NCBI GenBank assembly: GCA_050950785.1
Contig: JBMNIG010000007.1
Location: 166,971 to 198,970 of the forward strand
Direction: 5' to 3'
Source: Eubacteriales bacterium
Lineage (GTDB): Bacteria; Bacillota; Clostridia; Oscillospirales; JAAYOS01
Length of the DNA: 32,000 nt
Shown in pieces: positions 3,065 through 20,586 of this stretch. The position numbers were made by a program, and so were the translations under genes. The notes beneath the pieces were generated by a model that worked only from the letters and a program-made list of their open reading frames with translations, was not told the origin of the DNA and ran no database searches. Numbering within the stretch: the stretch's first letter is position 1; each line of letters opens with the position of its first letter.

Positions 3065-3913
3065 TCATTGCATGGACGAACGAACCATCCTTAAATATTC
3101 TCGAATACCGGCTTCTTCGTCGTGACGGTATGTGAAGCCAAAGTGATCTGCTACCGCTACTGCAAGAGTGTGGAACAAGTCACACATCACATCGACCGAT
3201 GCCCAGATGTCGGTATAGTCACTGCCCGAATAAGTGGCGGCGTATTGATCGTACAATTCAGGTGAGAGATATTTTTTGAAATACTTCCCGTTCTTGCCTG
3301 TAGATATGTCAAATCCGTATTGTGTGCCGAGATAATAATTGATCATATCATGAAGTTCAGACCGAACCACATCATTGAGCATATGCATTACATAAGGTAA
3401 CTCATCCCGCGCAATTCCTTTTGCGACATTGTTTAGACACCACCAGAAATTATTGCAGCATGAGTAATAGAAAAGTGGGGAGGGAGGCTTGATATGCCAG
3501 TGTTTATCGCTTGGGGCAGGCAAAGCTGGCAAAAACCCATGACCATTGTCTTTATCCAGCAGAACTACTGCAGGCTCCCCGTCATCAATGTACTTTGTAA
3601 ACTCAAAAGAGAGGTCAATGCGAACTCCATCAGGATAAATCATCATATAGTTAAAATGACCGTCTCCGTCCGGATAACGCATAGCTTCCGGCATCTGCAT
3701 AATCAGAGGCTTGCCGAAGCCTTCATCAACCCATGCAGGATTATTATAAAATGGTGCAATGTCTTCAACAAAATAGGTGATGTCGTAATCCTGGTAGATG
3801 TCCTTCGGTGCGGATGGGTTCGCCCGCGAACCGACCAGCAGTACAGCACGAATTCGTTCGTCGGCTCGAGCCACCCCTAAAATCAGGTTCATAATTTCCT
3901 GTTCATCTCGCAT
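3065..3913 (-). CDS. aadK: aminoglycoside 6-adenylyltransferase, ANT(6)/AadK family
   Basis: MRDEQEIMNLILGVARADERIRAVLLVGSRANPSAPKDIYQDYDITYFV parallels, from memory, the B. subtilis AadK / ANT(6)-Ia N-terminus (MRSEQEMM...DERIRLV.LEGSRTN....D.FQDYDISYFV). The 282-aa length matches the family. GGGAG SD is present. Confidence 0.85.
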   Translation of the reverse strand: MRDEQEIMNLILGVARADERIRAVLLVGSRANPSAPKDIYQDYDITYFVEDIAPFYNNPAWVDEGFGKPLIMQMPEAMRYPDGDGHFNYMMIYPDGVRIDLSFEFTKYIDDGEPAVVLLDKDNGHGFLPALPAPSDKHWHIKPPSPLFYYSCCNNFWWCLNNVAKGIARDELPYVMHMLNDVVRSELHDMINYYLGTQYGFDISTGKNGKYFKKYLSPELYDQYAATYSGSDYTDIWASVDVMCDLFHTLAVAVADHFGFTYRHDEEAGIREYLRMVRSSMQ

Positions 3914-5687: not shown

Positions 5688-7370
5688 GTATGTGTCAAGT
5701 AATCGTTGGGAAATATTTCTGAGTTAGAAAATTAGCATCAAATCAAGATAAGACTTATTTTTAGGATTGCAAAGCATCACCGTATCATACCGGTGCGCTA
5801 GTACTTGTATGAGCATAGTTCTTAGGAGCCGAAACGTATGTTGCTTAAGGCTCTCATTCCTAGAAGAGATTTGCTCCACTTCATGTTAGGGATTTCTGCG
5901 CGCTTGAAGCCATTGTATCCTTTGCCAACGGCCTGCTGCGTCTTAGCGGAGCTAAATCCGGTTATTGCATGAAGAGATGTGGTTGGGATTACTTCGCCTA
6001 TCACAGAGAGTGTACGTTTTAGACGACCTGTTTGCTTCAGACAGATCAAGGCAGCCAGATGATTGGCTCCATCAATGCTCCAGGAGGCACGTCTGCCCTT
6101 CATTCTGTTACCAACCATAGTAAATATATTGCTCTCCATAGCACCTAAAGGTGCACGCTGTAGGCCAGGATTTACGTCAGGTATCTCAAGTCCTCTCTCG
6201 TGGTACGGAATAAGAGCATCCTTGTTGTTGCTAAAATAGCTTAGTAGAGCTTTTCTTCTTTTTTGCTCTGTTTCATCAACTGTGCTATTTATTGAGGCTT
6301 CAATTACATCCAATAGATCATCAATCCTCTTGTTAAGAAGGAGATCCATCATAAGGCTACAAAGATCAGGGTCATTTACGTACTCTCGAATCGCTTTGTT
6401 CCGGTGAAAGATATCTAACTGGTACACTGTGTCCGCCCCCTTTTGTCCCTTTATCCACTTAGCTCCATCTCCATTGAGTATGCGCATTTCAATTTCATCT
6501 ACGTTGTAAACAGAGGCTATATGCCCTTCCTTGCGTTCAACAAACTCCGAAGCGCTTTCAAAACTTGCACAGGCAACCTTATCAGATAGGTTTCGGCGGC
6601 CACCGGCCGTCTCGCTGATACCGGTGTAAGCAATTGCAACCTTCATTTCTTTGGATTTGCCGTGCTCTTTACGGGCTTTCCCCTGCAGCGATAGCCACAC
6701 ACCATCTTGTTCTTCGAATAACACCTTGCTTTCAAGTTGGCCTGTGCCTTTATTCTGCACAGCCTTTTCTGCAAGTTGCTCTTCATATCCCAGAACCCGA
6801 CTTCCAACTGCCTGTGTAACAGACCAAGCTGTTGTATGGGATATCTTTAGACCGCTTGTCTCACTTATCTTCTCTGCCACTTCACGATAATCACTTTCGC
6901 ACGCTGCAGTTGCTATAAGGCTTGACACAAGCTCACTCATTTTTCCCGGTGCATCAATTCCTAAAGCATTATCAAGAAGGTATGTGTACTCTTTTCCTCC
7001 GCTTTCATCACGTGTCCAGTACACTCTCCGGCTATATTCAACCTCTCCCATGATTGTCTTGAGGCTTGTCTTACGTTGCCCCTCACTCTTGTATTCCTTG
7101 ACATCTCTTTGGCTAAATATCTGCTCATCTAGCTCTGTCAGTATCTCAGCCATTTGTGCACGGCCTATCGCCATACACATATCGTAAATATTTCTTTCAA
7201 TTTTTTGTAAATCTACCTTGAATTCTTTCCCGTTCTCGGTTAGAATCATAGTTGCATACACCACCTGTCTGATTTTTTCTTCAAACTAATCTTAACAAGG
7301 TTTGTATGCAAAGGGAAGGGCTTTTTTAGCTTTTCCCTTTTCTTTTTCCCAATGATTATTTTACACTAAG
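5688..7370 (-). mobile_element. complete insertion sequence, ISLre2 (UPF0236) family
   Basis: A single transposase ORF is flanked by imperfect terminal inverted repeats, GTATGTGTCAAGTAATCGTTGGGAAA (5688-5713) against the reverse complement of 7345-7370, matching at 20 of 26 positions. Perfect 9-bp direct repeats GTATAATTT lie at 5679-5687 and 7371-7379. Confidence 0.8.
5822..7264 (-). CDS. ISLre2/UPF0236 family transposase
   Basis: The 480-aa size fits the family, and the block KTIMGEVEYSRRVYW...YTYLLDNALGI...KMSELVSSLIATAACESDYREVAEKISETSGLKISHTTAWSVTQAVG resembles the UPF0236/ISLre2 N-terminal region as I remember it. The start is either the GTG at 7264 or the ATG at 7249. Confidence 0.8.
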   Translation of the reverse strand: MVYATMILTENGKEFKVDLQKIERNIYDMCMAIGRAQMAEILTELDEQIFSQRDVKEYKSEGQRKTSLKTIMGEVEYSRRVYWTRDESGGKEYTYLLDNALGIDAPGKMSELVSSLIATAACESDYREVAEKISETSGLKISHTTAWSVTQAVGSRVLGYEEQLAEKAVQNKGTGQLESKVLFEEQDGVWLSLQGKARKEHGKSKEMKVAIAYTGISETAGGRRNLSDKVACASFESASEFVERKEGHIASVYNVDEIEMRILNGDGAKWIKGQKGADTVYQLDIFHRNKAIREYVNDPDLCSLMMDLLLNKRIDDLLDVIEASINSTVDETEQKRRKALLSYFSNNKDALIPYHERGLEIPDVNPGLQRAPLGAMESNIFTMVGNRMKGRRASWSIDGANHLAALICLKQTGRLKRTLSVIGEVIPTTSLHAITGFSSAKTQQAVGKGYNGFKRAEIPNMKWSKSLLGMRALSNIRFGS

Positions 7371-12233: not shown

Positions 12234-14225
12234 TTACATTAGCTGGCTTTCGTGTTTTGCGAAAAAGTCGACTCGCGGTTCCAAAAACTTAAGGTTATGC
12301 TCGGACGGGTTTTCAATAAAATCATATATCGAGTCAAAGATCCTATCCCAACTCCAAAAATCTTCACTCAGATTCAAATAGTCCAGTATCATTTCAGTCC
12401 CCTCCGGAGCAACCGGATGCATCAAAACAGCAGCCGTTCTTACCATATGGAAGGTATCTATTATCGTCTGAGCCCTTAAGTCATTATCATCTTCTTTGTC
12501 TGCATCTCGGATCATCTTTACCCAGTACTTATTCATGCCTCGGATATAAGTGTCCATCAGACTCATCATCAGGTGAAAATCACACTTATACATCAACTTC
12601 TCATATTCCAGGATCGTACTCTTCGCCTCGGTCAATACCTCTTCGCTAATTTTCCCCACAGGAAGCTTTCCGTCGAAGTATTTCTGCACAGTGTAAAAGC
12701 AGGATCTTACAACCCTATTGAATACGTTTGTTAAGAGGTTTCCCTCTTTGAGGACAGGATCACTGTCTTTTTCGCCAGCCTTTGGATTGAATGGTTTCGG
12801 CTGAAAGCTTACACTTCTTATTCCAAGGCCAAGACCAAGAAAGTGTGCCCTCAACTGTTCCGGCGTGTAGTGTTCAAGAAGCTCCCGAGCTGTAGGGGGC
12901 TTGATTTTGCCGCTGCTACTGGCTTTCTTGTTCAAAAATAGCAGATGATTGTTAACTATCAGATGCGGTAATTGCATTTCACCTTCGGGCGGATCAGCTG
13001 TTGGTTGCTTGCCCTGCAATCCCATGAACATAGCCATTTCGGCAGGTCCGTAGAAATAGACATTGTCTTCGCCTATAAACTGGAACACCCCGGCATCCTT
13101 CGAGCACCACCAATCCTTCCAATCGTCGTCATCCTTGCCATTCATCTCAAGGAAGCATTTTGTAAAAGAAATCGGTGCCCACAGCGATTCAGGCCATACC
13201 CACACGGTTAGACCGTCAAGATCTTCGAGAACCGGAGCAGGAACTCCCCACTCTATATTACCTGTCAGTCTGAATGGGACAAGCGTTTTACCTGTTCTGA
13301 ATCTTATGGAATTATCAGCGAGGATTTGACAGGCTTTTTCCCTGTCTTCCAATGTCTCAAACACCAAAACAGCGGAGGGCTTTCTGTCTTCGACCTTGCA
13401 TTCAAACCTAGGGAGCTGACTTCTTAAGTCATCAAGGGACTCGAGTAGATCCTTCTTGATATATATCACGGGAGGCTCAAGAAATTCCTTGATGCTACTT
13501 ATTGCAAAATCTCTAATAATCCCATTCCCCTCGGCTTTATCGATCCACTTTTTCAGAAGAGAGTAGAACTCATCAAGTTTGAAGTACCAGTTAGTTGCAT
13601 CCTTCATGATAGGCTTTTTGCCCGAAAGTAGACTTTTTGGGTTAATGAGATCGGATGGCATGTATTGGTGGCCAAGGGAGCATTCATCGGCATATGCTTT
13701 CTCGGATGAGCATCCGTCGATAGGGCACTGACCTACAACCTGACGGCCGTTGAGATATACGTCGAACTCGGTATCATAGAACTGGGATGTGGTCATCTTT
13801 CGTAGATGGCCGTTTTTATACAGTTCAGTAATGATCTCCAAAGTTAGCTCCTTGTGGATTTCAGATGCCCTTTCCAGAGCCGATGCAGCAAACAAGTTGA
13901 GACTGATGCCGTACTTATCAAGCACTTCTTTTTGCAGTTCATGATTCATTTGCACAAAATCGGTTATTGTACCATCAAACTCGCCTTTTTCAACGAGTTG
14001 TCTATAGTTTTCCAATATAGGTGAGCCATAACAGTCAGTTCCTGAAACAAATATCACGTTATCCTTTCCGATCCTGTCGCGGAGAAAACGCGCATAGGTA
14101 TCCGCATGTACAAAAACGCCCCCGACATGGCCCAGATGGAGCTCCTTGTTTCCGTACGGCATTCCTGCGGTAACGATTGCGCGCTTTGGGAATCTCGGTC
14201 GCTCTACGTTATTTACATTACTCAT
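12234..14225 (-). CDS. metG: methionine--tRNA ligase family protein (class I aaRS, E. coli-type MetRS fold, divergent KMSKS)
   Basis: PYGNKELHLGHVGG (HIGH), a zinc-knuckle region CPIDGCSSEKAYADECSLGH, FIGEDNVYFY and a helical anticodon-domain pattern ...LMHPVAPEGTEMILDYLNL align block by block with E. coli MetRS as I remember it. The KMSKS position reads KASSS. GGAGG SD is present, and the gene is preceded by a T-box leader. Confidence 0.75.
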   Translation of the reverse strand: MSNVNNVERPRFPKRAIVTAGMPYGNKELHLGHVGGVFVHADTYARFLRDRIGKDNVIFVSGTDCYGSPILENYRQLVEKGEFDGTITDFVQMNHELQKEVLDKYGISLNLFAASALERASEIHKELTLEIITELYKNGHLRKMTTSQFYDTEFDVYLNGRQVVGQCPIDGCSSEKAYADECSLGHQYMPSDLINPKSLLSGKKPIMKDATNWYFKLDEFYSLLKKWIDKAEGNGIIRDFAISSIKEFLEPPVIYIKKDLLESLDDLRSQLPRFECKVEDRKPSAVLVFETLEDREKACQILADNSIRFRTGKTLVPFRLTGNIEWGVPAPVLEDLDGLTVWVWPESLWAPISFTKCFLEMNGKDDDDWKDWWCSKDAGVFQFIGEDNVYFYGPAEMAMFMGLQGKQPTADPPEGEMQLPHLIVNNHLLFLNKKASSSGKIKPPTARELLEHYTPEQLRAHFLGLGLGIRSVSFQPKPFNPKAGEKDSDPVLKEGNLLTNVFNRVVRSCFYTVQKYFDGKLPVGKISEEVLTEAKSTILEYEKLMYKCDFHLMMSLMDTYIRGMNKYWVKMIRDADKEDDNDLRAQTIIDTFHMVRTAAVLMHPVAPEGTEMILDYLNLSEDFWSWDRIFDSIYDFIENPSEHNLKFLEPRVDFFAKHESQLM

Positions 14226-14269: not shown

Positions 14270-14590
14270 TATAGAAAAACTCCCACCTCCAGGATCCTTT
14301 GTCCTGGGGACGAGAGTTCTCGCGGTGCCACCCCGGTTCACCATAGCTTTACAGCATAGGCCTCGGTAAGTACATGTAATCAAAGATTCGATTACCTATA
14401 CTTTTGCACTGTAACGGGTGCGCCCGTTGCAGCCTACCCGACCAGCCGTTATCCACTAACATGGCGGATCGTATCGGTGCACTGCTCAGGAGCCTGTTCG
14501 TAAGGTTTTCAGCATCCCTTTTCACCTTCCGGGACTCTCTGTATCTGAAAATAGCCAAACTACTATTCTCCGTCATCGCTTTCCAATATT
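14270..14590 (-). promoter_or_regulatory. T-box riboswitch leader (transcription attenuation type)
   Basis: On the minus strand I see: a K-turn/S-turn start GCGAUGACGGAGAAUAGUA, an AG bulge AGAGAG, a distal loop GGUGAAA, and the canonical T-box AACCGGGGUGGCACCGCGAG with an antiterminator (GGGG / bulge UGGCACC / GCGAG-CUCGU / CCCC). A terminator stem follows (CCCCAGGA...UCCUGG(A)GG) and then UUUUU (14275-14279). Confidence 0.85.
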
Positions 14591-15654: not shown

Positions 15655-15814
15655 GCTGAGAGGTAATGTGAGCTACTCTCATCTTATAGTTACGTAGTAT
15701 TCAAGGGATCGAAACCCCTTGCAGAACCGACAAGCCAGTCGTGTTATTCGCTACAGTTTTGGAACTTGAACAGTGGACCAAGGTAGAATTATTGGAATGG
15801 AGGGCTTAATAATC

Positions 15815-16372
15815 ATGGATGTTCGCATTGATACATCTCAGATTGTTATCGAGACCGAGCGACTGATACTGCGTTCATTTATTGAGTCGGACTTATCGGA
15901 CTTCTATAACTACGCATCTGTTCCCGGTGTCGGAGAGATGGCAGGATGGCCGCACCACGAATCGATTGAAACTTCAGAGCGCATATTGAAATCCTTTATT
16001 GACGGAAAAGAGGTCTTTGCAATATATCACAAGGCAGATAAAAAGGTTATCGGCTCACTGGGGCTTCATCCGTCATGGGCAAATGAAGATGAAAGATATA
16101 AAAGTCTGAAGGTCAAGGAAATCGGGTATGTACTCGCAAAGGACTATTGGGGCCATGGACTGATGCCGGAAGCAGTCAGAACGGTGATCGATCATGGATT
16201 TGAAACACTTGGGCTCGATGCTTTTACCTGCGGCCACTTTGTCGATAATAGCCAGTCGCGGAGAGTTATAGAGAAGTGTGGATTCACTTTTGTAAAGCAG
16301 AGTGAATTTTACTCGAATCAGCTTCAGCGTAGCTTTGAAGATATGAAATACATATTGCTCCGCACATACTAA
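15815..16372 (+). CDS. GNAT family N-acetyltransferase (RimJ/RimL-like)
   Basis: ETERLILR N-terminal motif, ...IGYVLAKDYWGHGLMPEAV...FVDNSQSRRVIEKCGF, size 185 aa. GGAGGG SD precedes the ATG at 15815. Confidence 0.85.
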   Translation: MDVRIDTSQIVIETERLILRSFIESDLSDFYNYASVPGVGEMAGWPHHESIETSERILKSFIDGKEVFAIYHKADKKVIGSLGLHPSWANEDERYKSLKVKEIGYVLAKDYWGHGLMPEAVRTVIDHGFETLGLDAFTCGHFVDNSQSRRVIEKCGFTFVKQSEFYSNQLQRSFEDMKYILLRTY

Positions 16373-16405
16373 AAACGGCGGTATCCGGCTGGAGGTATGC
16401 GTATT

Positions 16406-17386
16406 ATGATAAAACTCAACAAACTAGGCTACTGCGGCATCATCACCAATTACTACTGTTCATCCAAGTGCCGGCATTGCATGTATGCAAGTTCGCCGCA
16501 GTGGCCAAAGGATTATATGGAAGCCAAGCAGGCGGACGAAATATTCAAGACTTTAAGAAAGTTTGGATGCAGCAGTGTCCACATAGGTGGCGGAGAGCCC
16601 TTGCTTCAACCGGAGAAGCTTCTGCCTGTTTTGAATGCGGCCGCAAAAAACAATGTTTACATAGAGTACATCGAAACGAACGCATCCTGGTACAAAGATG
16701 ACAGGCGAGCAGGAGAAGTGATAAGAAACCTTAAGCAGCATCATATACATACACTGCTGATTTCCATTGATCCTTTTCATAATGAGTATGTTCCGTTCAG
16801 CAAGGTAAAGGGTCTGATTGCTGCCTGTAATCGGCATGGCATGGAAGTCTTTCCTTGGCGGATGGAGTTTTGGGGTGATCTTGAAGCCGCCGGTGATGAT
16901 TCGGTTGTTCATTCCCTTGAGGAATATGAAGAGATTTTCCATAAGGATTACAAGCTCATGTTGGCAAAAAGATATGGATTAAACCCGCGGGGAAGAGCGT
17001 TGCAGACATATAAGGAGTACCTTGAGGATCAGCCTATTGAAGATATCCTTGATCATTCGTCCCCTTGTAGAGAGTTATTGGGAGTCAATCATTTTCACGT
17101 TGATTTATATGGTAATTTTGTTCCCCCGGCTTGCTCGGGTTTATCTTTAGATTTGAGAGATGCAGTAAGGGGTGTGGATCCCGAAAAGTACAAGGTATTT
17201 TGCGCTCTTGCCACAAACGGGATCAAAGGCCTTTATGATTTTGCCGTAGAACATCATGGGTATACACCGAAGGATTTATATAAAGGGAAATGCGACCTTT
17301 GTTACGATATACGTGAATATCTAGTGTTGGAGAAAAACCTCGAGTTGCCTGACCTACAGCCCATAGGCCACTACAAATATATGTAG
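16406..17386 (+). CDS. radical SAM protein, function unknown
   Basis: CX3CX2C cluster motif CSSKCRHC near the N-terminus, a GGGEPLL SAM-binding motif, and extra C-terminal cysteines (PPACSG, KGKCDLC). It starts 34 nt after the GNAT stop codon. GGAGG lies 10 nt upstream of the ATG at 16406. Confidence 0.85.
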   Translation: MIKLNKLGYCGIITNYYCSSKCRHCMYASSPQWPKDYMEAKQADEIFKTLRKFGCSSVHIGGGEPLLQPEKLLPVLNAAAKNNVYIEYIETNASWYKDDRRAGEVIRNLKQHHIHTLLISIDPFHNEYVPFSKVKGLIAACNRHGMEVFPWRMEFWGDLEAAGDDSVVHSLEEYEEIFHKDYKLMLAKRYGLNPRGRALQTYKEYLEDQPIEDILDHSSPCRELLGVNHFHVDLYGNFVPPACSGLSLDLRDAVRGVDPEKYKVFCALATNGIKGLYDFAVEHHGYTPKDLYKGKCDLCYDIREYLVLEKNLELPDLQPIGHYKYM

Positions 17387-17467: not shown

Positions 17468-18067
17468 TTAGGAGGATATCTGCGTTAAATAGATCCACCA
17501 TCCTAAGCAGGCTATCATCGCGCCAATAATGTTTGCAATGGTATCACTCATAGTGTCCACTAAGCCCGGCGGTTGGATCGCTTTCTCAGGTTGGTGGTTA
17601 ACGACGGGGCTGTTCTTTTGCCAATGCTGATGGTCGGTGTGAAAAATGCTGTCAACTAGAAACTCGCAGACTTCCCAAATTTGATGTAAGGCTAGCGACA
17701 AAGCAAAACCAAATACCAAAGTACCGGCAAGTCCGACATCGGGTTCTTTATCGGCAAGAGTTATTCCAAATCCGAAGAATAGTATACCTGAGAGAAAGTG
17801 TACGATCCTATCCAACCAGGGGTGGGAATCATAATATCAATAACCTGTCCCAAGAAAAACGGCCAAGAAAAGAACAGTTTGGAATAAAAAAACCGTTAGG
17901 GTATCTAGTTGGATATCAATCAGGCTGAGCAGCCAAGGGATAAAGGTTAGTGCTAGTGTAATGGTGGCGAGAAAGATTTTTTTGTAATTTCGCTTAAATA
18001 GTTGTACAGCCGTCATTATCACCACTATTACCCGTATTAGGTTAGTATAATAGAATAAAAAACCCAT
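17468..18067 (-). pseudogene. polytopic membrane protein interrupted by a single in-frame TGA (possibly DUF2238/YjdF-like)
   Basis: Track ORFs 17837-18067 and 17468-17815 are in the same frame and separated only by the TGA at 17837-17839. Read-through gives ...FLGTGY*YYDSHPWLDRIVHFLSG..., a continuous hydrophobic protein of about 199 aa. The downstream piece has only a TTG start and no SD. Confidence 0.6.
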
Positions 18068-18287: not shown

Positions 18288-19148
18288 CTAGACGCTGTTT
18301 TCAATTTCCTCTCCCGAAAGGAGTTTTTTTCTGTCGCTTCCGCGTTTAAGTATCTGGATGAGTTCAGTTTTATTATTAGTTTTGATGAGCTTGTTGAAAC
18401 AATGCAGGCGCTCTATCAAGCCTTCGATCTCAACAGAAAGATATTCGGAATTTTCAATAAAAAGTTCGGTCCACATATTTTCATTAAGTCGTGCGACCCT
18501 TGTCATATCCATAAAACTGCCGGCAGAAAAACCTTTATGCTCTAAAGCAGAATCACTCAGGATGTAAGCACTCGAAACAACATGCGCAAGCTGTGAAGTA
18601 AAGGCTATCATCTTATCATGTTGTTCCGGAGTTGCGTACTGGACGTGTCCAAAGCCAAGCTTCAGAAAGAACTTTCTGATTCTGTCTACAACATCAATTG
18701 CTGTACCAGTTACCGGTGTAAGAACCATGGATGCGCCTTGGAAAAGGTCGAGTTTTGAATACTCGAATCCGGAATACTCTATACCCGCCATAGGATGTCC
18801 ACCTATAAAGCAAAAGCCTGACTGCGATGCTATTGGCGCGATAGCTGATACAACCCCCGATTTTACTCCACAACAGTCTATAACTACAGAATCTCTTTTA
18901 AAGCGAGTAGCATTTTTTGTCACATATTCAATCGTGTCTCCGGGGTACAGTGCGATGATTACTATGTCGCAATAGCCTAAGCGCTCGTAAGTTAAACGCT
19001 CGTCAATGGCGTTTAGCATTAGCGCCTTCAGGGTTACTGGTTCAGATAAATCGTACCCCCACACAGTGTAGTCCGTGTTCTTCTTGATTGCTTTGGCGAG
19101 TGAACCGCCAATAAGCCCTAGACCAACGATTCCAATGTTCATTGACAT
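18288..19148 (-). CDS. tyrA: prephenate dehydrogenase
   Basis: MNIGIVGLGLIGGSLAKAIK Rossmann GxGxxG motif, GGHPMAG catalytic His motif, length 286 aa. GGAGGT SD lies 7 nt upstream of the ATG at 19148. Confidence 0.9.
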   Translation of the reverse strand: MSMNIGIVGLGLIGGSLAKAIKKNTDYTVWGYDLSEPVTLKALMLNAIDERLTYERLGYCDIVIIALYPGDTIEYVTKNATRFKRDSVVIDCCGVKSGVVSAIAPIASQSGFCFIGGHPMAGIEYSGFEYSKLDLFQGASMVLTPVTGTAIDVVDRIRKFFLKLGFGHVQYATPEQHDKMIAFTSQLAHVVSSAYILSDSALEHKGFSAGSFMDMTRVARLNENMWTELFIENSEYLSVEIEGLIERLHCFNKLIKTNNKTELIQILKRGSDRKKLLSGEEIENSV

Positions 19149-19180
19149 TTTTCATACCTCCACTTGTTGAATATAAATTG

Positions 19181-19216
19181 AATTAAAAAGACCCCACAGC
19201 GTTAGCTGTGGAGTCT
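19181..19216 (-). terminator. intrinsic terminator of the tyrA leader (attenuator)
   Basis: The minus strand reads AGACUCCACAGC-UAAC-GCUGUGGGGUCU, a 12-bp stem including one G-U pair (19216-19189), followed by UUUUAAUU (19188-19181). It lies 33 nt upstream of the tyrA start codon, between the leader ORF and tyrA. Confidence 0.7.
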
Positions 19217-19263
19217 GCTTTGGCTGAGTTACAATCAACCTATTGCGACCTGATACAAAGACT

Positions 19264-19368
19264 CTATCCTCTTCCAACAGCATAACGCAAATAAGCCTTA
19301 TCATAGTAATAGTAATAATAGACAAGGCTGAGATAATAATATGCTGCTGTTGCAAGACGGGTTATCAT
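19264..19368 (-). CDS. candidate Tyr-rich leader peptide (34 aa: MITRLATAAYYYLSLVYYYYYYDKAYLRYAVGRG)
   Basis: The ATG at 19368 has GGAGA 5 nt upstream. 11 of 34 codons are TAT/TAC, including runs of 3 and 6. This is the only one of the three frames with an ATG plus SD. The stop codon TAG (19264-19266) lies inside the proposed antiterminator arm. Confidence 0.6.
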   Translation of the reverse strand: MITRLATAAYYYLSLVYYYYYYDKAYLRYAVGRG

Positions 19369-19451
19369 ATTGTTCTCCATTTTATTTTGATGTAGTGGTA
19401 TTTATAGAGTAAGGTAATTTAATTTGAAGAGCTTAAGATATTTTAAGACAT

Positions 19452-19480
19452 AATATAGCACAGATGACTGAACTTGTAAA
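19452..19480 (-). promoter_or_regulatory. sigma-70-like promoter of the tyrA leader
   Basis: On the minus strand, TTTACA (19480-19475), a 17-nt spacer and TATATT (19457-19452) preceded by TGC (extended -10). Confidence 0.5.
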
Positions 19481-19518
19481 CCAGAAATTCAATTATTTAA
19501 CATATAAAAGCAAGAAGT

Positions 19519-19539
19519 CCCCCACCTCTAAGGTGGAGG
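19519..19539 (-). terminator. hairpin terminator downstream of the pseudouridine synthase gene
   Basis: The minus strand reads CCUCCACC-UUAGA-GGUGGGGG, an 8-bp stem with one G-U pair, followed by ACUUCUUGCUUUU. On the plus strand the same stem would carry a C-A mismatch, which favours minus-strand function. Confidence 0.45.
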
Positions 19540-19668
19540 ATGAATTGCATAGCGTTAAGCGGCGGGAGTACGTCACCTGATTAACTACAAGAATCATTAA
19601 AAGCGAAGAGAGGCCGTGAAGTGTAGATAGTTTGAACCTATTGACACGTGAGGCTAAAAAAGCGGTGT

Positions 19669-20586
19669 TCACATTTTACGAAGATCAAGAAAAGACTTCA
19701 TTGGTTCTCTGATTATTGGACAGTGAATGTCAATATTTTTATTATCGATTGAATGAAAGAACTGAAGTCTTTCTGCATGGAGCAGCTGTCCATGGATATT
19801 TAGCCGGTCTGAGATATCTTTTGACTCCTCATTGTTGTATATTTGGTCGCCGACAATTGGGTGGCCCAAAGCTGAACAATGTACCCGAAGCTGGTGTGTC
19901 CTGCCGGTTTCGGGTTCGAGTTTCAATATTGAAAAATTGCAGCCACTATACTGAACTAGATCTAGCAACTGATAATGCGTTATAGATTTTGCGCCGTCAC
20001 TTGAAACACCGCGCTTTATATTTCCGCTTTGCAAACGCAGAATGGGTAGGTTGATAGTACCGCTATTACCTATAACTCTTCCATGGGTAACGGCTAAATA
20101 TGTTTTTTTAGCAGATGCCAGTGGCTGTGAAAAAAGTGACTTTGTATACGCGTTTTTTGCAAAAAGGACAATTCCTGAAGTGTACCTATCAAGTCTATTC
20201 AAAGCGTGGCAAGTTGTTCCCCCTGAATCAGACAGGTAGCCAAGTACATAGCCCATCAATGTGTCAGTTAATTGTGAACGGGATGGATGTGTAAGCATAC
20301 CTTCGGGTTTATACACAGCAAGCAAAAAATCATCTTCATACAGAACTGTTAGTTCTCCGTACTCAACAGGAATTTCTTGAGGTGATTCGACCAAATCGAT
20401 GTTTGCAGTTACTAAGTCGCCTTCCCGGCAAATATAGTTTGTAAAGACAGGCGTGCCGTTAACACAAATGCCATCCACCAACTTCAACCGAGTAATCATC
20501 CTTTTTGATAATCCCATTTTATGTTTTAAGACGGTTTTGATTTCTTTGCCACCATCTTCTGAACCAATCAACTTATTAAGTATCAT
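19669..20586 (-). CDS. RluA family 23S rRNA pseudouridine synthase with an N-terminal S4-like domain
   Basis: Catalytic motif LNRLDRYTSGIVLFAKN (HRLDxxTSG-type) and C-terminal RTHQLRVH, at 305 aa. GGGAG SD is present. Confidence 0.9.
   Translation of the reverse strand: MILNKLIGSEDGGKEIKTVLKHKMGLSKRMITRLKLVDGICVNGTPVFTNYICREGDLVTANIDLVESPQEIPVEYGELTVLYEDDFLLAVYKPEGMLTHPSRSQLTDTLMGYVLGYLSDSGGTTCHALNRLDRYTSGIVLFAKNAYTKSLFSQPLASAKKTYLAVTHGRVIGNSGTINLPILRLQSGNIKRGVSSDGAKSITHYQLLDLVQYSGCNFSILKLEPETGRTHQLRVHCSALGHPIVGDQIYNNEESKDISDRLNIHGQLLHAERLQFFHSIDNKNIDIHCPIIREPMKSFLDLRKM

Follow-up and report, generated by a model that had tools for sequence, protein, structure and literature searches.

We analysed a window of 32,000 nucleotides, the whole stretch presented above, from a metagenome-assembled genome (MAG) of an uncultured 'Eubacteriales bacterium', a gut or digester member of the Clostridia that is present in several metagenomes. 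Our subject is the leader region of tyrA, which combines a short tyrosine-rich open reading frame (ORF) with a terminator. Coordinates are window positions, and promoter, leader, terminator and tyrA all lie on the minus strand. The tyrA gene (18288–19148) encodes a protein of 286 amino acids of the prephenate/arogenate dehydrogenase family and has its own Shine-Dalgarno (SD) sequence, GGAGG (19157–19161). Its product contains the Pfam domains PDH_N (9e-25) and PDH_C (9e-15) and is matched by NCBIfam prephenate dehydrogenase models with E-values down to 8e-49, though all of these matches stay below the equivalog cut-offs. A domain search of the window proteins detected no further aromatic pathway gene besides tyrA.

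Upstream of tyrA, a consensus scan located a sigma-70-type promoter, TTTACA-17-TATATT (19452–19480), which agrees with the consensus at 10 of 12 positions and carries a TG upstream of the -10 box. About 77 nucleotides downstream of it, the SD sequence GGAGA (19374–19378) is followed after five nucleotides by an ATG (19368), which opens the leader ORF MITRLATAAYYYLSLVYYYYYYDKAYLRYAVGRG (19264–19368) of 34 codons with the stop codon UAG at 19266–19264. Another in-frame ATG, at 19380, is without an SD sequence and is missing from related leaders. Tyr accounts for 11 of the 34 leader codons, concentrated in a run of three UAU codons (run 1, 19333–19341) and a run of six UAU or UAC codons (run 2, 19303–19320). 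As for the other two reading frames, one opens only at a TTG (a 67-amino-acid ORF, 19152–19355) and the other has no start codon. A preliminary description, made from the sequence alone, had listed this promoter, the SD-led Tyr ORF, the two unsuitable frames, a strong terminator and prephenate dehydrogenase as the regulated gene, and all of these were recovered in our analysis.

The leader RNA can be divided into segments that pair in alternative ways. Segment 1a (CAGCAGCAU, 19341–19349) and segment 1b (AGCCUUGUC, 19321–19329) flank Tyr run 1 and pair with segments 2a and 2b to form the outer and inner helices, respectively, of a predicted anti-antiterminator hairpin. Segment 2b (GAUAAGGCU, 19294–19302) spans the codons Asp-Lys-Ala. 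These assignments are based on minimum free energy (MFE) folds, RNAalifold and covariation. Segment 2a (AUGCUGUUGGA, 19273–19283) was delimited from masked folds and pairing counts; it can pair with 1a through AUGCUGUUG (19283–19275) or, through GCUGU.GGA, with UCC.ACAGC of segment 3. Hairpin search, folding and covariation placed segment 3, the 5′ arm of the terminator (AGACUCCACAGC), at 19205–19216 and segment 4, its 3′ arm (GCUGUGGGGUCU) together with the U5 tract, at 19184–19200. The terminator AGACUCCACAGC-UAAC-GCUGUGGGGUCU-U5 (19216–19184) has 12 base pairs, a loop of four nucleotides and a predicted energy of -20.8 kcal/mol, and the tyrA start codon (19148) lies about 33 nucleotides downstream. 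The leader stop codon begins 7 nucleotides past the end of 2a (19273), which puts 2a within the footprint of a ribosome at the stop codon, as judged from the sequence and from a masked fold.

Folding yielded mutually exclusive structures, as the preliminary description had anticipated. In the free RNA, 1a:2a and 1b:2b form one long hairpin of -25.6 kcal/mol, with the terminator forming alongside; the internal loop that separates 1a from 1b holds Tyr run 1, and an apical loop of 18 nucleotides is made up of Tyr run 2. The same 1:2 hairpin was predicted by RNAalifold. For the masked folds, a footprint of 30 nucleotides centred on Tyr run 1 was blocked and the RNA was ended at the start of segment 4. 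The resulting MFE structure was an antiterminator in which GCUGU.GGA (19281–19273) pairs with UCC.ACAGC (19212–19205), which is 5.4–6.5 kcal/mol more favourable than the best fold with an unpaired terminator 5′ arm. Under the run-1 mask this antiterminator was the MFE structure in the window and its relatives, and also at loci L018, L021, L023, L036, L045 and L017. When 2a was masked, as by a ribosome at the stop codon, the terminator formed.

The preliminary description had assigned two pairings to region 2. One of them, to CCACAGC, agrees with the conserved helix GCUGU.GGA:UCC.ACAGC; the other, GAGUCUUUG with CAAAG(CAG)ACUC, is absent from the MFE antiterminator and has 70% of its cells paired in relatives. 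We rejected GAGUCUUUG:CAAAG..ACUC as a second antiterminator helix because it is missing from the MFE structure and not conserved in relatives. The conserved antiterminator consists only of GCUGU.GGA:UCC.ACAGC. The proposed four-region attenuator geometry held up in its alternative pairings and their conservation; region 1, which had been left undefined, can now be described as 1a plus 1b.

Close relatives of the leader were found by a protein search followed by contig look-up, which returned TyrA homologues at 81, 79, 71, 70 and 68% identity; TyrA scans of genome and metagenome collections gave a best identity of 57%. The relatives with 71–81% TyrA identity share promoter, SD sequence, ORF frame and terminator with the window. 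Specifically, the same promoter and the arrangement GGAGA(N5-6)ATG are kept in L172, L176, L178 and L181. The frame is conserved in the relatives' leader peptides, which read MVTRLSAAAYYYLSLVYYYYYYDKAF..., MITRISTAAYYYLSLVYYYYYDKAYLRYAAGRG (L176/L177) and MISRLLAATYYYLGFVYYYDKAYLRFAADTV (L178/L179), with that of L172–L175 being MVTRLSAAAYYYLSLVYYYYYYDKAFRVMLQAGDRVVA. Run 1 is constant among the close relatives and is kept across the whole window-type family, and the Tyr codons number 3+6, 3+5 or 3+3. Run 2, with six, five or three codons, thus looks like a lineage-specific expansion. At L172 (709–825; L173–L175 alike), one nucleotide is deleted behind the Tyr runs, so that the C-terminal part is read in another frame and ends at a stop codon 12 nucleotides further downstream. 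As the RNA segments remain intact there, constraint seems to act on the RNA and the codons and not on the peptide tail. A three-way covariation was also observed, in which GCUGU changes to GCUGC in 2a, ACAGC to GCAGC in segment 3 and GCUGU to GCUGC in segment 4. The same-species contigs L161–L171 are identical bar a few single-nucleotide polymorphisms and therefore carry no information, and at L184 the leader is truncated at the contig end. At P0005 and P0007–P0009, tyrA lies within aro operons and no leader stands directly upstream of it.

The relative with 68% TyrA identity (L181) has a different gene order. Here tyrA is the second gene of an operon aroF-tyrA-aroB-aroA, in which aroF encodes 3-deoxy-D-arabino-heptulosonate 7-phosphate (DAHP) synthase, and the leader is found upstream of aroF (312–466). 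It is orthologous to that of the window, with 121.9 bits and an E-value of 7e-27 against a covariance model described below (R2), and its terminator is nearly identical to the window terminator. Its peptide, MKLHLSAPDQTVAYLYFSFIYYFDKAYLRYAADKG, contains mixed Tyr/Phe codons (...VAYLYFSFIYYFDKAYLRY...). One and the same scaffold thus appears to carry mixed Tyr/Phe codons in front of the common aromatic pathway plus tyrA, and Tyr-only codons in front of tyrA alone. This strengthens the earlier proposal that the regulatory codons match the pathway.

To assess how widespread such leaders are, we took a census of 146 Clostridia tyrA loci with at least 300 nucleotides of upstream sequence. A leader was counted when an SD sequence and start codon, at least five aromatic residues in eight, and a hairpin followed by a T run were present. 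Leaders stood directly before tyrA at 16 of the 146 loci, 87–130 nucleotides upstream and with near-pure Tyr runs such as MKRNFAATYYYYYYFG; over whole peptides their Tyr:Phe:Trp ratio is 93:20:0. At a further 75 loci, a Tyr/Phe leader stands ahead of a DAHP synthase gene, itself followed by tyrA; here the ratio is 288:326:4, and the identity of the DAHP synthases was confirmed by their domains. Examples of this operon type are L001 (1289–1463), L018 (1241–1403) and L062 (1302–1447), and the operon-type leader of Anaerovorax odorimutans (L001) is MLNKFNTFAAEYFYFYFTFFFKSKVNFAAMG. Together, leaders were detected at 91 of the 146 loci (about 60%), representing 71 distinct RNAs, and no candidate was found elsewhere in the flanks of the 146 loci. 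Tyr-dominated operon-type leaders also exist (L062, with YYYYYYY, L130 and L018), so the rule is Tyr-only codons in direct leaders and anything from Tyr-only to alternating Tyr/Phe in operon leaders. The leader element of the window is thus no isolated oddity and belongs to a large Clostridia family.

Two side observations from the census loci are given here. The operon-type leader of L143 (275–370), MKAINAYYYYFWFTRQYAG, has a Trp codon beside Tyr and Phe codons, a composition that may make it responsive to each of the three aromatic amino acids. Among Acutalibacteraceae MAGs, the 3′ end of a 23S rRNA gene is directly followed by the tyrA leader (L045, 1–342); leaders next to 23S rRNA are also found at the 5′ ends of L017, L019, L038, L072, L073, L076 and L080, and many such contigs break there.

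The predicted helices were then examined with covariance models. The model R2, with the window and three close relatives as its seed, matched 20 further leaders at E<0.001, giving an alignment of 24 sequences (A10) fitted to the modelled structure. Besides L181, its matches include L021 (4e-11), L002 (9e-9), L001 (2.5e-4), L028, L037, L018, L036 and L012, among others, and every one of them lies upstream of DAHP synthase-tyrA. Over the 1:2 hairpin and the terminator of A10, 93.0% of cells were paired and 25 of 29 pairs showed compensatory changes, a result that none of 500 shuffles reached; slid controls gave 35–51% paired cells. Compensatory changes were seen in 8 of 9 pairs of helix 1 (1a:2a, 83.9% paired), in 6 of 9 pairs of helix 2 (1b:2b, 95.7% paired) and in all 11 pairs of the terminator helix (98% paired). 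The antiterminator core GCUGU:ACAGC, which is outside the R2 model, was 89.9% paired with compensatory changes in 3 of 5 pairs, and its covariation score was above that of all 500 shuffles.

For model R1, of the Acutalibacteraceae type, 17 direct leaders served as the basis, and a search with it recovered 22 operon-type leaders at E<0.006. In the R1 alignment, likewise fitted to its model, 91.2% of cells of the 1:2 hairpin and terminator were paired and 23 of 32 pairs were compensatory (0 of 500 shuffles). One of these pairs, 40–103 (UA in 16 and AU in 15 sequences), links the codons to the structure, as the switch from Tyr to Phe (UAU to UUU), at the second base of the codon, is matched by a U to A change in segment 2. 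At L018, L021, L023 and L036, the pairing of segment 2a (GCUGUUGCUGC) extends from the terminator 5′ arm over the loop into the beginning of the 3′ arm, and a terminator loop base covaries with 2a, from U-A in L018 to C-G in L021. Searching the window leader with R1, filters off, gave no meaningful match (best 8.4 bits, elsewhere in the region). R1 and R2 share at least nine target loci, so the two leader types are joined through intermediates only.

The leader was also compared with known RNA families. No Rfam 15 family reached its gathering threshold over the leader, whether the whole window, the region at E-values up to 10, or 20 related loci were searched. Below threshold, the region gave His_leader (RF00514, 17.9 bits against a threshold of 49) and Thr_leader (RF00506, 17.6 against 55), matches driven mostly by the terminator hairpin. 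No T-box (RF00230) match was obtained in 19050–19750 at E-values up to 10, and no T-box motif upstream of tyrA was picked up at 160 loci by a regular expression, whose strict pattern could miss divergent T-boxes. The same window does contain a T-box elsewhere (RF00230, 96.4 bits, 14303–14585, minus strand), upstream of a class I tRNA ligase (methionyl-tRNA synthetase-like) gene at 12234–14225. T-box and Tyr leader in one genome mean that both T-box and leader-peptide control would be used by this organism.

Taken together, the tyrA leader is very probably a ribosome-mediated transcription attenuator that senses charged tRNA-Tyr, judging from sequence conservation and modelled folds. Transcription would start from the promoter at 19480–19452, and a ribosome would load at GGAGA-N5-AUG and translate the 34-codon leader. 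With plentiful Tyr-tRNA it would reach the UAG at 19266–19264 and cover 2a (19283–19273), allowing the 12-bp terminator (19216–19189 plus U5) to form and transcription to stop 33 nucleotides before tyrA. When Tyr-tRNA is scarce, the ribosome would stall on the Tyr codons, and a stall at run 1 would cover both 1a and 1b; the freed 2a could then pair with the terminator 5′ arm before the 3′ arm is made, so that no terminator forms and tyrA is transcribed. If no ribosome is loaded, the 1:2 hairpin (-25.6 kcal/mol) would sequester 2a and termination would follow. The sequence elements, the alternative pairings with their conservation and covariation, and the agreement of leader codons with downstream genes are shown by our data; that ribosomes stall, that polymerase reads through, and what a stall at run 2 in the apical loop would do are inferred.

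The preliminary description had named several outcomes as speaking against an attenuator, among them orthologous tyrA leaders that lack a Tyr-rich ORF or conserve a different frame, and folds without stable alternative pairing. Orthologous leaders were found to retain the Tyr-rich ORF in the same frame, and both the compensatory stem changes and the use of TAT as well as TAC that it had suggested looking for were present in related leaders. None of the adverse outcomes that were examined computationally was observed, and the attenuator idea is supported to this extent.

Several points nevertheless weigh against the attenuator. The antiterminator is modest, some 15 kcal/mol less stable than the terminator at equilibrium, and the switch must therefore act kinetically. 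In the trp attenuator of E. coli the antiterminator is likewise weaker than the terminator. Furthermore, a ribosome footprint on run 2 masks 1b and 2b, and 1a:2a still pairs in plain thermodynamic folds. This helix may or may not close around a ribosome stalled at run 2, which makes the role of the six-codon run uncertain. Covariation was weak in the small alignments A1 (the four closest sequences, with the antiterminator core helix 96.4% paired) and A2 (17 very similar sequences), which is why covariance-model searches for diverse members were needed, and the fitting of the R1 and R2 alignments to the modelled structure inflates the pair counts given above. Lastly, transcription in Bacillus subtilis is said, from work attributed to Johnson et al. 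in 2020, to outrun translation, and the same behaviour in this Clostridia lineage would disfavour attenuation.

Other explanations of the leader have to be weighed against these data. The switch could be real and yet be set by a trans factor, either a TRAP-like protein activated by Tyr or a T-box-like recognition of uncharged tRNA-Tyr, with the ORF being incidental; we consider this improbable. The Tyr runs are triplet repeats that the 1:2 hairpin displays in its loops, possibly within reach of a protein, and both TRAP and T-boxes are common in Firmicutes, with one T-box in this very genome. Yet the region around the leader has no T-box or other Rfam match at E-values up to 10, and all 73 distinct leaders have an SD sequence and start codon in the aromatic frame (for 69 of these, it had been required for selection), compared with 5 and 3 of the 73 for the other two frames. 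The exchange of Tyr and Phe codons with operon content fits a reader of codons and not a sequence-specific binder. Both synonymous Tyr codons are common (TAC 188, TAT 159), and the position of the stop codon is always such that segment 2 would be covered or bordered by a terminating ribosome, all of which argues further against a trans factor.

The ORF might instead encode a functional Tyr-rich peptide, such as a regulator or the precursor of a ribosomally synthesized and post-translationally modified peptide (RiPP), with its position before tyrA being secondary. A leader peptide that acts in trans, peTrpL of Sinorhizobium, is reported in PMC7298713, and the window encodes a radical S-adenosylmethionine (SAM) protein (16397–17386) whose similarity to YydG is weak (2e-12). 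In L176 and L178 this gene does not adjoin the leader, and a RiPP precursor for this enzyme was rejected since the gene is not conserved next to the leader. Moreover, the C-terminal tail is frame-shifted at L172 with the RNA elements retained, peptides vary greatly beyond the aromatic run, and the leader is without exception followed by a terminator and by genes of aromatic amino acid biosynthesis, which together make a functional peptide very unlikely. Least likely of all is a trinucleotide-repeat expansion that arose by chance before a hairpin and has no regulatory function. Tracts of (TAY)n can expand by slippage, and the copy number does vary between six, five and three among close relatives. 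Runs of at least six TAY codons are expected only 1.5e-4 times per strand in 32 kb, however, and were absent when the intergenic region was shuffled 20000 times. The 650 kb surrounding 160 tyrA homologues contain 30 runs of at least four Tyr codons; 29 of them lie on the tyrA strand, and all 29 are located either 111–156 or about 1120–1190 nucleotides upstream of tyrA. A chance origin of the Tyr run is thus excluded. With the element also kept across many Clostridia lineages with covarying stems, the run positions, the census and the covariation in A10 effectively exclude a mere repeat.

The attenuator proposed here resembles the leaders of proteobacterial biosynthetic operons (trpL, hisL, pheL of pheA, thrL, leuL and ilvL) in its SD-led short ORF with tandem codons for the end product, in the pairings 1:2, 2:3 and 3:4, in the intrinsic terminator just before the biosynthetic gene, and in a stop codon set so that a terminating ribosome masks segment 2. 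It differs from them in its Tyr codons, its Clostridia host, its lack of a sequence or structure match to RF00514 or RF00506, and, in the window, in the split of its Tyr codons into an internal-loop run and an apical-loop run. With a T-box (RF00230), by which Tyr-related genes of Firmicutes are usually controlled, it shares the sensing of a specific tRNA's charging and a choice between terminator and antiterminator in the 5′ leader; a T-box, however, binds uncharged tRNA directly and does not need translation.

Related systems have been described in other bacteria. According to the review PMC11802643, the aroR leader of Corynebacterium glutamicum (Neshat et al., 2014) has a Phe-Tyr-Phe motif before aroF and acts by ribosome-mediated attenuation that responds to Phe limitation, Tyr availability being without effect. 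As described there, aroR resembles the Clostridia leaders in being an aromatic-codon leader peptide ahead of a DAHP synthase operon, and it differs in having a single Tyr codon and no runs, in its actinobacterial host and in controlling aroF, not tyrA. The uORFC-13-1 motif, a candidate upstream ORF with 24 representatives, is found upstream of aroF only in Acholeplasma and environmental sequences and contains a Phe-coding U run; no Tyr runs or link to tyrA were reported (Brewer et al., 2021; PMC8632094). By description, it shares with the Clostridia leaders the promoter, the ribosome-binding site, the start codon, an intrinsic terminator immediately downstream, the DAHP synthase gene and a Firmicutes-related lineage. 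His leaders with three to five tandem codons and a terminator/antiterminator have been predicted in the Bacillus cereus group, Peptostreptococcaceae and Erysipelotrichales (PMC9413887). They differ from our leaders in their histidine codons, their his operons and their unrelated RNAs, but indicate that the leader-peptide mechanism exists in the phylum. For tyrosine itself, a 2005 survey listed the genes as controlled by T-boxes and, for Actinobacteria, detected no conserved RNA structure ahead of the tyrosine operons (PMC1262725), and a table in PMC2659441, citing Camakaris 1980, mentions an old suggestion of an attenuator sensing Tyr-tRNA at aroF-tyrA of E. coli.

In agreement with the preliminary description, which knew of no such family, our search of the full-text literature, restricted to open-access papers, found no Tyr leader-peptide attenuator. 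With the balance tipping only slightly in favour, we suggest that the tyrA leader is the first recognised Tyr-specific leader-peptide attenuator and part of a large, undescribed superfamily of Tyr/Phe leaders whose codons are re-tuned to their cargo. The mechanism is textbook; new, as far as we have checked, are the Tyr specificity, the host group and the breadth of a family with re-tuned codons.

The surroundings of the leader in the window are as follows. Upstream of it lies a gene for an RluA-family pseudouridine synthase (19669–20586, minus strand), identified by domain search, with a terminator-like hairpin of its own (19518–19540, minus strand) found by hairpin search. Downstream of tyrA, a DUF2238 gene (17468–18067, minus strand) is split into ORFs of 76 and 115 amino acids, most likely by a base substitution that created a premature stop codon; it is intact (199 amino acids) in contigs with identical TyrA (L163, L164, L167 and L168). 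Genes for a GNAT acetyltransferase and the weakly YydG-like radical SAM protein (15773–17386, plus strand) converge on tyrA-DUF2238 and are not found beside the leader in relatives. Further away, a streptomycin adenylyltransferase-family gene (Pfam Adenyl_transf, 7e-100; 3065–3913, minus strand) lies near a UPF0236 transposase-like gene (5822–7264, minus strand), and the pair could form a mobile resistance element.

The textbook case of genes controlled through the speed of translation is leader-peptide attenuation, and in Firmicutes such control of amino acid genes is usually ascribed to T-boxes, TRAP and riboswitches. A Tyr attenuator in Clostridia would, if true, fill a gap as an unannotated class of regulatory RNA in many gut and rumen genomes, and the leader family would sharpen the annotation of operons and regulons for aromatic amino acid synthesis. 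The family also offers a natural experiment: with the RNA scaffold kept, Tyr/Phe codons are used ahead of aroF-tyrA and only Tyr codons ahead of tyrA alone, which illustrates how attenuator specificity can evolve by codon changes and compensating changes in the stems. Possible uses include a Tyr-responsive genetic part and the removal of the leader when engineering tyrosine overproduction. If the leader is functional, ribosomes must trail RNA polymerase closely in these Clostridia, unlike the uncoupling reportedly seen in Bacillus subtilis, and the leader would provide a direct handle on transcription-translation coupling in this group.

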